Shown piece by piece: positions 1,314-9,628 of a stretch of 64,000 bases of DNA. Location: positions 160,001 through 224,000 of IMG/VR virus record IMGVR_UViG_3300021514_000002. One strand, 5' to 3'. A model generated the notes under the pieces. That model searched no databases. It was not told the origin of the DNA and was given only the letters and a program-made list of their open reading frames with translations. A program made the translations under genes and the position numbers. This DNA is from a virus. Taxonomy: Duplodnaviria > Caudoviricetes. How positions within the stretch are numbered: position 1 is the first letter of the stretch; each line of letters begins with the position of its first letter.

Positions 1314-1541
1314 TTAAATTTCCTCTTGTTCGTCGTCTGCTTTACCATTGATAGTACAAGGACGAAACTTATACAATGGACAATTCTTTGAAGTACAATC
1401 TTCAACTTGTTTACGCCAACTACCACACCCCAATGCTTCGGGGTCATAGATACATTCACAACACATCGCATTGATGGCTGCAGCGCGCCCCTTTTTACTA
1501 CGGAGTTTATTCATTACTTTTTCTTTCTGATCTGTTTTCAT
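1314..1541 (-). CDS. Small Cys-rich protein (CCEC...C...CPLY), likely metal-binding
   Basis: Start re-set to ATG 1541 after CAGGTAA; Cys cluster. Confidence 0.65.
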   Translation of the reverse strand: MKTDQKEKVMNKLRSKKGRAAAINAMCCECIYDPEALGCGSWRKQVEDCTSKNCPLYKFRPCTINGKADDEQEEI

Positions 1542-1568
1542 ATTTGTTACCTGATCTGTTTTAAGAAA

Positions 1569-1719
1569 CTTATGTAAGACCAGTGACACGACATGAATAC
1601 CTAGTCGACTCCAGCTATGCTGGCTTGGTTTCATCCCGTAGCAAGGGCATTCCTAGTTACACTTGCCGCCTGTTTCCAGACTGTTGTTTTTCAACAACTA
1701 CCACTTAATCTTACATAAG
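1569..1719 (-). ncRNA. Candidate structured RNA or long 5' leader
   Basis: 11-bp closing stem 1569-1579/1709-1719 with internal hairpins incl. CTG-GAAA-CAG; directly downstream of promoter at 1765. Confidence 0.35.
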
Positions 1720-1895
1720 CTCCCTACGTTGAGAACATTATTACACAACCGTAGTTCTTTGTCAATAACTTTAAGCCCTTATAAGTGCTCTTATAGTTTA
1801 TTACCCTGCGCGTCAGGTCGCGTCTATAAGATCGGCGTGGCAATTTGACGCCGATGTTTTACTTTTAACATACATTGTATGTTCTTCTTATAAGC

Positions 1896-2069
1896 AGCCC
1901 CTAACAGGATTCGAACCTGTGAGAAGATAATACAATAACGATGTTTTGGGGACATCAAGACAATTACCCAAAATCCTTGTCTACACACTACACTTAGCGC
2001 AATTGTATGCAATGTATTATCTAAGTCGCTTCTTCAAGTGACTCCCTAAGCCGACAGGGGGCTAGGGGC
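1896..2069 (-). ncRNA. tRNA-like RNA with ~100-nt insertion in the variable region
   Basis: Acceptor GCCCCTA(2069-2063)/TAGGGGC(1903-1897); perfect T-arm ACAGG-TTCGAAT-CCTGT; D-like hairpin CCCT/AGGG; no encoded CCA; promoter at 2191. Confidence 0.5.
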
Positions 2070-2199
2070 ATAGATTTATTCTGCCCACCTCACGACACTG
2101 GGTGGCGATGCCGTAACATTCCTACATGATTGCGTTCCTCTTTGTTTGTTGACAGTGGGGATATTATTACATACCCCTAGTTATTTGTCAATAACTATT

Positions 2200-2796: not shown

Positions 2797-2861
2797 AACT
2801 TAATTCCTTTGTTTGTTGACTGTGGGGACATTGTTACATGCCCCCGTTTGTTTGTCAATAA

Positions 2862-9375: not shown

Positions 9376-9558
9376 ATGTCTAATTCTAATAACATGCAAC
9401 CGTTTAACTTTAATAAACAACAATCTTGGAACGTCCTTATCGGTGACAACGTAATCGACACCGTTTTCTATGATAAAAATCTCGATGCTGATTATGTACG
9501 AGATGGCCTTGTGAACCATGACGGATACCCCGCAGAGATTGAAGTATTAAAAGGGTAA
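9376..9558 (+). CDS. Small hypothetical protein
   Basis: Start re-set to ATG 9376; promoter 9314. Confidence 0.65.
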   Translation: MSNSNNMQPFNFNKQQSWNVLIGDNVIDTVFYDKNLDADYVRDGLVNHDGYPAEIEVLKG

Positions 9559-9628
9559 AATAATAATTGACAATAGCGCAGGGATGCGCTATTATTACCA
9601 CAGTCAACGAACAAAAGGAATACAGCTT

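Follow-up and report, generated by a model that had tools for sequence, protein, structure and literature searches.

A tRNA-shaped phage RNA with a large structured insert, joined to a conserved 3' RNA

What is an RNA that folds like a tRNA, carries about 100 extra nucleotides, and lacks a recognizable anticodon? The question is raised by an element on the minus strand (2069..1896) of a 64,000-nucleotide (nt) stretch of DNA from a giant deep-sea phage; the stretch corresponds to positions 160001-224000 of the 363.5-kb virus record IMGVR_UViG_3300021514_000002. We refer to the whole stretch as the window and use its numbering. Phage RNAs that look like tRNAs have been known since species 1 RNA of T4, in the 1970s, and we know of none that has been assigned a function. 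The initial annotation took the element for a stand-alone RNA of about 175 nt, either a tRNA mimic or a new class of phage non-coding RNA (ncRNA). As described below, comparisons across phages suggest that it is a conserved tRNA mimic that does not decode, and that it forms the 5' module of a two-part phage ncRNA whose 3' part is more conserved.

The tRNA-shaped module and its homologues

The module is 174 nt long, including the discriminator base (U at 1896), as delimited with RNAfold and covariance models. All features of the RNA and its promoters are on the minus strand. From the 5' end, it comprises an acceptor stem of 7 perfect base pairs (2069-2063 with 1903-1897; GCCCCUA/UAGGGGC), the dinucleotide GC, a D arm (2060-2044; CCC(C)/(A)GGG, with GG at positions 18-19), a single A, an anticodon-like arm (2042-2025; GUCAC-UUGAAGAA-GCGAC, with one A.C mismatch), and UU. 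A domain of 98 nt (2022..1925, element positions 48-145) occupies the position of the variable arm, and it is followed by UCUC and the T arm (1920-1904; ACAGG-UUCGAAU-CCUGU). The domain is closed by a helix of 10 bp (AGAUAAUACA/UGUAUUAUCU), within which are the hairpins H1 (2011-1982), H2 (1981-1959), and H3 (1956-1940). The loop of H2 contains UUUGGG and that of H3 contains CCCAAA; these are complementary and form a putative kissing contact. The initial annotation had described the arms, the insert, and the complementary loops correctly, as well as the lack of an encoded CCA and of a G3-U70 pair (position 3-70 is C-G). It had omitted H1, the 3' tail, and the homologues.

The cloverleaf is the minimum-energy structure of the element (RNAfold; -57.6 kcal/mol, z = -3.7), and none of 200 shuffled sequences was as stable. 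The body is that of a canonical tRNA: it has a 7-bp acceptor stem, a 5-bp T stem, a T loop of the form UUCRANY, and a D arm with G18G19. Standard tools did not call it as a tRNA or as a member of any known family. ARAGORN called no genes in the window, and the Rfam model for tRNA (RF00005) gave 15.3 bits, as compared to its threshold of 29 bits, and aligned to the 3' part of the element only. When the 98-nt insert was deleted in silico, ARAGORN did call a tRNA, with an 8-nt loop and the anticodon "GAAG"; this run used 90% of the default score threshold (-ps90), and the default threshold was not tried. The element had also been judged too short to contain a group I intron or to be a tmRNA. A tRNA with a group I intron would need at least ~200 nt in the anticodon loop and a P3-P9 core, while this insert is 98 nt long, lies at the variable-arm position, and does not match Intron_gpI.

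Relatives of the element were not found by direct searches. BLAST of the region against GenBank phages gave no match, and neither did exact or degenerate DNA patterns in IMG/VR (T arm plus acceptor stem, or kissing loops plus T loop). Locus searches with a single protein, either the 125-aa neighbor or rIIA, gave nothing; a search with the Cys-rich neighbor gave two loci, both without the mimic RNA. Six IMG/VR records that were retrieved by aligning neighboring proteins had no match to R1, which is a covariance model of the tRNA-like unit from one sequence. The upstream gene that encodes the 125-aa protein (2419-2796) has 18 relatives, and their contigs were retrieved for a covariance search. 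R1 had a full-length match in loci L013/L014/L015 (53.5 bits, E = 2e-12), downstream of the orthologous 125-aa gene. R2, which is a model of the same unit from two sequences, identified L057 (84 bits), L029-L032 (35 bits), and L028 (24 bits). In total, there are four homologues, all in related metagenomic phage contigs; the contig of L057 is within a metagenome-assembled genome (MAG). Thus, the large-insert subfamily has only five distinct members (the window, L057, L013, L029, and L028), and in all of these except L057, the shared gene slot is downstream of a homologue of the 125-aa gene.

The covariation analysis that had been proposed as a check favored a conserved structure. In a four-sequence alignment of the tRNA-like part, 94.7% of the cells are paired, and 27 of the 53 pairs have changes on both sides, compared to 10.8 +/- 2.3 in shuffles and at most 5 with slid partners; this alignment was fitted to the model, which favors structure. 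The slid controls and the independent minimum-energy folds argue that the covariation signal is real. The insert shares in it. Its closing helix and all three hairpins are retained, with compensatory changes, in the window, L057, and L013, and in the four-sequence alignment, insert helices 4, 5, 7, and 8 are 80-100% paired and have both-side changes. Furthermore, all five members of the subfamily have adjacent hairpins with complementary but differing loops: UUUGGG/CCCAAA, UAGGG/CCCUA, UAGGCA/UGUCUA, UGCGCA/UGCGCA, and GCGC/GCGC. Shuffled loops reached these lengths of complementarity in 60, 212, 27, 30, and 645 of 2000 trials, respectively. The evidence from any single sequence is modest; it is the recurrence with altered letters that supports the predicted loop-loop contact. 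The canonical features of the tRNA body are kept in the homologues, apart from L013, which lacks G18G19 and has U in place of C56. We also noticed a reading frame in H1 that resembles the tag of a tmRNA (GCA...UAG, 9 codons). It is present in the window and in L013, and a UGA breaks it in L057.

The anticodon-like arm behaves differently from a decoding arm. Across the subfamily, it has a stem of 5-6 bp and a loop of 6-9 nt whose sequence is not fixed: UUGAAGAA in the window, CAUGACAG in L057, UGUGAUAA in L013, GCAGAAAC in L029, and about 9 nt in L028. The loop of a decoding tRNA would have 7 nt, with U33 and a shared anticodon. The first four of these loops have 8 nt (or 6 nt if the outer pair forms), and no anticodon is shared. 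The first and last bases of the loop covary as U-A, C-G, U-A, and G-C, so a stem that carries a loop of 6 nt is the best description of the arm. No member of the subfamily has G.U at position 3-70, and none encodes CCA. Together, these comparisons indicate a conserved tRNA mimic that is predicted not to decode. Apart from one extra A, the window's loop (UUGAAGA+A) is identical to that of the phage's own tRNA-Phe, and we considered a Phe-like decoder of four-base codons. This idea is based on the loop in the window alone, and the homologues do not support it.

The element lies in a row of early cassettes, which are small and have separate sigma-70-type promoters, and its assignment to such a cassette in the initial annotation stands. 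The promoter (2191..2163) reads TTGACA, 17 nt, TG-n-AATAAT, with 11 of 12 matches and an extended -10; equivalent promoters are present at L057, L029, and L028. The 5' leader of about 85 nt (2070..2155) contains a Shine-Dalgarno sequence (2141..2136), an AUG-UAG start-stop (2127..2122), and a CCACC/GGUGG hairpin (2106..2085). This Shine-Dalgarno sequence is of the generic cassette type and is followed by the start-stop mini-open reading frame (ORF). The leader of L057 (about 2805-2835, minus strand) has a matching layout, with AUG-AAG-UAA in place of AUG-UAG, and the leaders of L029 and L028 are just ~14 nt. Four of the five subfamily members, the window among them, have U directly before the acceptor stem. 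Two coding explanations were rejected: read-through of the UAG from the leader's AUG (L057 has UAA there), and a 62-aa ORF at 1824-2012 (it is not conserved, and its indels are not multiples of three).

The conserved 3' tail

The element is not the stand-alone RNA that had been assumed. Over the ~125 nt past the discriminator, the window and L013 are 83% identical; the tRNA-like part gives no BLAST match. This 3' part is a tail of ~120 nt (1770..1895) that begins with G74 at 1895 and is predicted to fold as a four-way junction (97.6 bits with R3, our covariance model of the tail). The junction is closed by P1 (1894-1887 with 1785-1778). In the consensus fold, the P2 hairpin follows, then the J2/3 strand (AAAAGUAAAAC), the P3 hairpin (1855-1831), which is unique within the phage genome, and the P4 arm, which encloses P5 (CCUG-ACGCG-CAGG) and an internal-loop strand, GUAAU; P2, J2/3, and P4 all lie within 1770..1895.

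A 20-nt pattern from P5 matched 22 loci in IMG/VR, of which 20 are real, and BLAST identified unannotated tails in Pseudomonas phages Psa21 and D6, in Phage TPWB-08, and in three Vibrio phages. Since the tails were collected by pattern search, the collection is biased towards copies that retain the P5 motif. The 23 distinct tails fit a single fold: a four-way junction closed by P1, with hairpins P2 and P3 and the arm P4-P5. Given these 23 sequences, RNAalifold found compensatory changes in 21 of 31 predicted pairs. In the tail alignment, 96.4% of the cells are paired, with 171 both-side changes (47 +/- 6 when shuffled and at most 28 when slid). Little or no variation is seen at about 45 positions, most of them in the junctions and the P4/P5 internal loop. 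A small ORF in the tail does not seem to be conserved: L029 lacks the AUG, and a 2-nt indel shifts the frame.

We did not find the tail among catalogued families. Rfam 15 has no match to it even at E <= 10, and no match at the gathering threshold in 10 loci. Likenesses to 5S rRNA, the SRP Alu domain, the hairpin ribozyme, the c-di-GMP-II aptamer, and CRISPR repeats were set aside because of the lack of Rfam matches to any family at E <= 10. Searches with R3 came up empty for T4, E. coli genomes, and plasmids, as well as for 150 other genomes sampled from the class to which the L057 MAG belongs. When the P3 hairpin was used as an anchor in metagenome contigs, it gave three chance matches in GC-rich coding DNA and one contig that was already known; with the P5 anchor in prokaryotic genomes, 13 of 14 matches were due to chance, and L057 alone was real. 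Within the searchable literature and Rfam 15, the predicted two-part RNA matches no catalogued family.

The carriers of the tail are diverse: T4-like jumbo phages from vents, the 305-kb phages Psa21 and D6, and Vibrio phages with siphophage-sized genomes of 47 kb. In Psa21 (L055; NC_062581 295226-295343), the tail is in an unannotated gap between tRNA-Pro and tRNA-Asn, and it is preceded by a tRNA-Tyr-like gene, also unannotated, and by a tRNA mimic whose "anticodon" stem has 8 bp. The Vibrio phages have the tail alone, without the tRNA-like part and with its own promoter and terminator. In Vibrio phage 1.106.O (L056), it is in an unannotated gap (MG592478, about 9484-9602); the Vibrio tail lies between divergent operons, beside repeated ACACGGA-type motifs, and a strong terminator comes after it. 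The mimic thus appears to be tied to a second, far more conserved RNA that recurs in very different phages. Because some carriers have been cultured, the purpose of non-decoding tRNA mimics in phages becomes testable.

The connection between the two modules is precise. In the window, the tail begins 2 nt past the acceptor stem (N73 and G74). A scripted parse covered 24 loci; in 22 of them, N73-G-P1 is immediately preceded by a T arm with a 5-bp stem and a 7-nt loop and by an acceptor stem in which at least 6 of the 7 positions pair. The 2-nt spacing is fixed in all 22 of these and, as judged by eye, in L052, which has a similar T arm with one mismatch. The elements upstream of the tail range from 68 to 181 nt, and their anticodon regions range from a 3-nt loop (L036), a UUCG tetraloop (L047), or an 8-bp stem (Psa21) to inserts of 40-100 nt. 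Given this linkage and the degenerate anticodon regions, the tail seems to be the constant part and the tRNA-shaped body its usual 5' companion, with a decoding end that is unconstrained.

ARAGORN called a tRNA for just seven of the upstream elements, and three of those calls have "anticodons" of 2 or 4 nt. Its labels for the elements in L042, L040, L050, and L055 are tRNA-Ile(AAU), Ile(UAU), Thr(GGU), and Gly(ACC). Such odd-anticodon "tRNAs" of phage arrays may be parts of the tail-linked ncRNA instead of decoders. This is a warning for annotation, as some tRNA calls in phage arrays (for instance, Ile-AAU and Gly-ACC) may belong to this ncRNA.

The slot that holds the mimic can also hold another RNA. 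The closest relatives of the window, as judged by the neighboring protein (77% identity; L004 and L005), lack the mimic and have a different structured ncRNA of ~165 nt there (L005:6425-6595 and L004:6636-6800). It has a closing helix of 14-15 bp and a conserved core (CCAAACCCGUAAUAGGGAUG), folds with z = -4.6, and has no Rfam match. In L013 (5700-5860), it is directly upstream of the tRNA mimic, in a common transcript. On the other side of the tail, the promoter of the next cassette (1765..1737) begins 5 nt past the tail, with no terminator between. That cassette (1568-1765 region, minus strand) has a structured leader of ~150 nt and then a gene for a Cys-rich protein of 106 aa (1634..1314). 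Relatives of this gene in L002 and L003 have no tRNA mimic.

More broadly, the proteins of the window include rIIA, tail-fiber proteins, and radical-SAM proteins. In the whole phage genome, ARAGORN identified 45 tRNAs, two CUA suppressor tRNAs, and a permuted tmRNA (233835-234219); the tRNA sites are at 2-72 kb and 249-253 kb, beyond the window. Six class I isoacceptors have long variable arms (Met, 90 nt; Trp, 87 nt; Glu, 85 nt; Asn, 91 nt; Thr, 88 nt; and Lys, 86 nt), and these adjoin twins of normal length. Just past the second tRNA block, a 401-aa open frame (G000:C1:78389-78775, locus L071) matches PolyA_pol (PF01743, 73.9 bits) and is probably a CCA-adding enzyme.

What the two-part RNA may do

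We propose, with moderate confidence, that the tRNA mimic serves the two-part RNA as a scaffold for processing and stability. The tRNA body would be retained because it folds as a tRNA does and is recognized as one. The leader would be removed by RNase P at U(-1)/G1, and the paired 5' end would then shield the RNA from decay that depends on the 5' end. The CCA-less 3' junction would be a natural substrate for an RNase Z-type enzyme, and a cut after N73 might free the tail with a defined 5' G. tRNA-type handling would account for the retention of the acceptor, D, and T arms alongside an anticodon end that drifts or gains cargo: such handling does not require the anticodon and variable regions, so these would be free to shrink or to carry folded, lineage-specific cargo. 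The tail would be the conserved effector; a target such as a conserved host machine or a phage protein would be in keeping with its sequence conservation among phages that infect different hosts. We also count U(-1), shared by four of the five subfamily members, and the CCA-adding-type enzyme that the phage encodes in favor of a scaffold.

Several points weigh against this proposal. The cleavages by RNase P and RNase Z are proposed from shape alone. A mere processing signal would not need a 98-nt domain; since the insert is kept by compensatory change and seems needless for processing, it probably has a function of its own. The linker is always 2 nt, which would be just as expected if the two modules were never separated and worked as a single rigid body. 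Finally, the Vibrio tails work without a tRNA-like module, so in some settings the tail does not need the mimic in order to function.

A more ambitious and more tentative idea, which we think is somewhat improbable, is that mimic and tail together are an uncatalogued and widespread phage RNA machine. The junction would be a catalytic core or a tight binder of a conserved host component, and the hypervariable graft in the tRNA body (the kissing-loop domain in this phage, tetraloops or other inserts in others) would be a lineage-specific module for specificity or assembly.

An alternative that we consider unlikely is that the RNA serves as a decoy or sponge. The tail would block the 3' end of the tRNA-shaped body, which would bind and titrate a host factor that recognizes the elbow or the acceptor of tRNAs, such as a tRNA-targeting defense nuclease or toxin, an RNase, or a modification enzyme, and either the tail or the insert would strengthen binding or contribute a second activity. 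The array of early single-gene accessory cassettes, the patchy presence, and the other ncRNA in the closest relatives are typical of genes for host takeover or counter-defense; also, in other phages the tail-linked element is within tRNA arrays, and what is conserved is the acceptor, D, and T arms, with the remainder variable. But the anticodon-like loop is neither conserved nor shaped like an anticodon, so it cannot mimic the usual target of anticodon nucleases, and the suggestion of an anticodon-nuclease decoy in the initial annotation is correspondingly doubtful. Nor was any partner protein or defense system linked to the RNA among the loci examined.

We give less credence to a catalytic or self-processing tail that would generate the mature 3' end of the tRNA-shaped RNA upstream, by analogy with the HDV-like theta ribozymes. 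The constant 2-nt spacing from the acceptor stem in all tRNA-linked loci would suit such an activity, as would the profile of the tail, whose ~45 near-invariant nucleotides and covarying multi-helix fold are typical of ribozymes and aptamers; there is a precedent for ribozymes at this position (PMC10879173). However, the tail matches no ribozyme family in Rfam at E <= 10, and it is a four-way junction, not a nested double pseudoknot. In addition, the upstream element mostly cannot decode, so maturing it as a tRNA would have no obvious purpose, and the Vibrio copies have no upstream tRNA at all.

A functional, chargeable tRNA is very improbable. It might be of the Phe type, with an 8-nt loop for a four-base codon or for frameshifting and an exceptionally long variable arm, and this would account for the "GAAG" call after deletion of the insert (at the 90% threshold) and for the loop that is a tRNA-Phe loop plus one A. 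Several class I tRNAs of this phage already have long variable arms, and a CCA-adding-type enzyme is encoded. However, the homologues have differing loops whose outer bases covary as a pair, L013 lacks both G18G19 and C56, and CCA is not encoded: the 3' side is instead fused to a conserved structured RNA in every tRNA-linked member.

We see just as little reason to expect a self-assembling RNA, in which the kissing loops and the tail would drive the formation of dimers or rings, as in the pRNA of phi29 or the cages of ROOL and GOLLD. The loops of L029 (UGCGCA/UGCGCA) and L028 (GCGC/GCGC) are self-complementary and could pair between molecules, and ROOL and GOLLD are likewise found near tRNAs, according to PMC5737381 and bioRxiv 10.1101/2024.12.08.627333. 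But the window, L057, and L013 have non-palindromic loops, adjacent hairpins fit a contact within one molecule, and Rfam shows no similarity to ROOL or GOLLD.

Least credible of all is a decayed, functionless tRNA pseudogene with an acquired insertion, which would fit the lack of calls by standard finders and the absence from the closest relatives, but not the four homologues that retain every helix by compensatory change despite divergence past the reach of BLAST, nor the co-varying kissing loops, the element's own promoter, and its fusion to a conserved RNA.

Comparison with known systems

The closest known analogy is in T4, whose species 1 RNA (rnaC, 139 nt) and species 2 RNA (rnaD, 119 nt) are, like the mimic, stable non-decoding RNAs beside phage tRNAs; these stable RNAs are still without a known function (PMC9697503). 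In our analysis, rnaC (L072 1909-2047) folds with z = -4.6 into an acceptor-like stem, a hairpin of ~65 nt, a 10-bp hairpin that resembles a variable arm, and a canonical T arm (GGGUUCGAAUCCC). By this prediction, rnaC is itself a tRNA-shaped RNA with large inserts. The mimic fits the same description: it is phage-encoded, over 100 nt, tRNA-shaped, and non-decoding, with a true T arm and long inserted hairpins. T4 differs in that the order is tRNA-Arg, rnaD, rnaC, without a fused four-way-junction tail or a kissing-loop domain. We do not consider the T4 RNAs to be homologues: R3 found nothing in the tRNA region of T4, and R2 gave 17 bits on rnaC, which is within the range of ordinary T4 tRNAs.

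Outside of phages, mascRNA (from the 3' end of MALAT1) and the t-elements of plant mitochondria likewise keep the acceptor and T arms and the elbow, have a degenerate anticodon region, and border a functional RNA; they are expected to be substrates of RNase P and RNase Z (PMC1920247 and PMC8457004). The proposed scaffold follows the logic of these processing signals, and the mimic has their shape, with minihelix and elbow kept, a degenerate anticodon, and a bordering RNA. Those RNAs are eukaryotic or organellar, whereas the mimic has a conserved 98-nt domain and a partner RNA on its 3' side, joined by a 2-nt linker.

YrlA-class Y RNAs are modular, with one module that mimics tRNA (D and T arms and elbow); some are substrates of RNase P, and some are in phages (PMC4201824). 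The initial annotation had suggested a YrlA-like RNA, and this label did not hold up, while the broader idea of a tRNA mimic or a new phage ncRNA did, as the structure is kept in the homologues. There is no Rfam match to YrlA at E <= 10, and the TROVE/Ro60 domain (PF05731) is absent from the 363-kb phage, although control genomes were matched. The motif GNCGAAN0-1G is not found near the 5' end as expected for YrlA: GACGAACG is present in some tails, where it is part of an internal loop, and at that site the window reads ACG-CGAC. The topology also differs. In YrlA, the two ends of the RNA come together in the Ro-binding stem, with the tRNA-like part in between; here, the acceptor stem forms the 5' end, and the second module is 3' of it.

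The likeness to tmRNA lies in a tRNA-like domain with a long helix that leads to a pseudoknotted extra domain, and tmRNAs can be encoded by phages, including elsewhere in this one. In contrast, this element has no G3.U70, no conserved tag frame, an anticodon-like arm, and a 3' end that runs into the tail, and neither ARAGORN nor Rfam called it as a tmRNA. Theta ribozymes (PMC10879173) are also conserved structured RNAs directly 3' of tRNA-shaped genes in phage arrays. They have the HDV fold, whereas the tail is predicted to form a ~120-nt four-way junction, and the tail's upstream partner is mostly non-decoding. More generally, we rejected known self-cleaving ribozymes as an identity for the tail: the fold differs, and no Rfam ribozyme matches.

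The last comparison is with an engineered system. Ponchon and Dardel reportedly built tRNA scaffolds in E. coli, in which a folded RNA is placed in a tRNA body and the chimera is said to be processed and protected like a tRNA. Those scaffolds are artificial and carry their cargo in the anticodon stem; the mimic is natural and would carry its cargo at the variable-arm or anticodon position, with another RNA at its 3' side. If our proposal is correct, this phage RNA would be a natural counterpart of the tRNA scaffold, with folded cargo grafted into the body of a tRNA.

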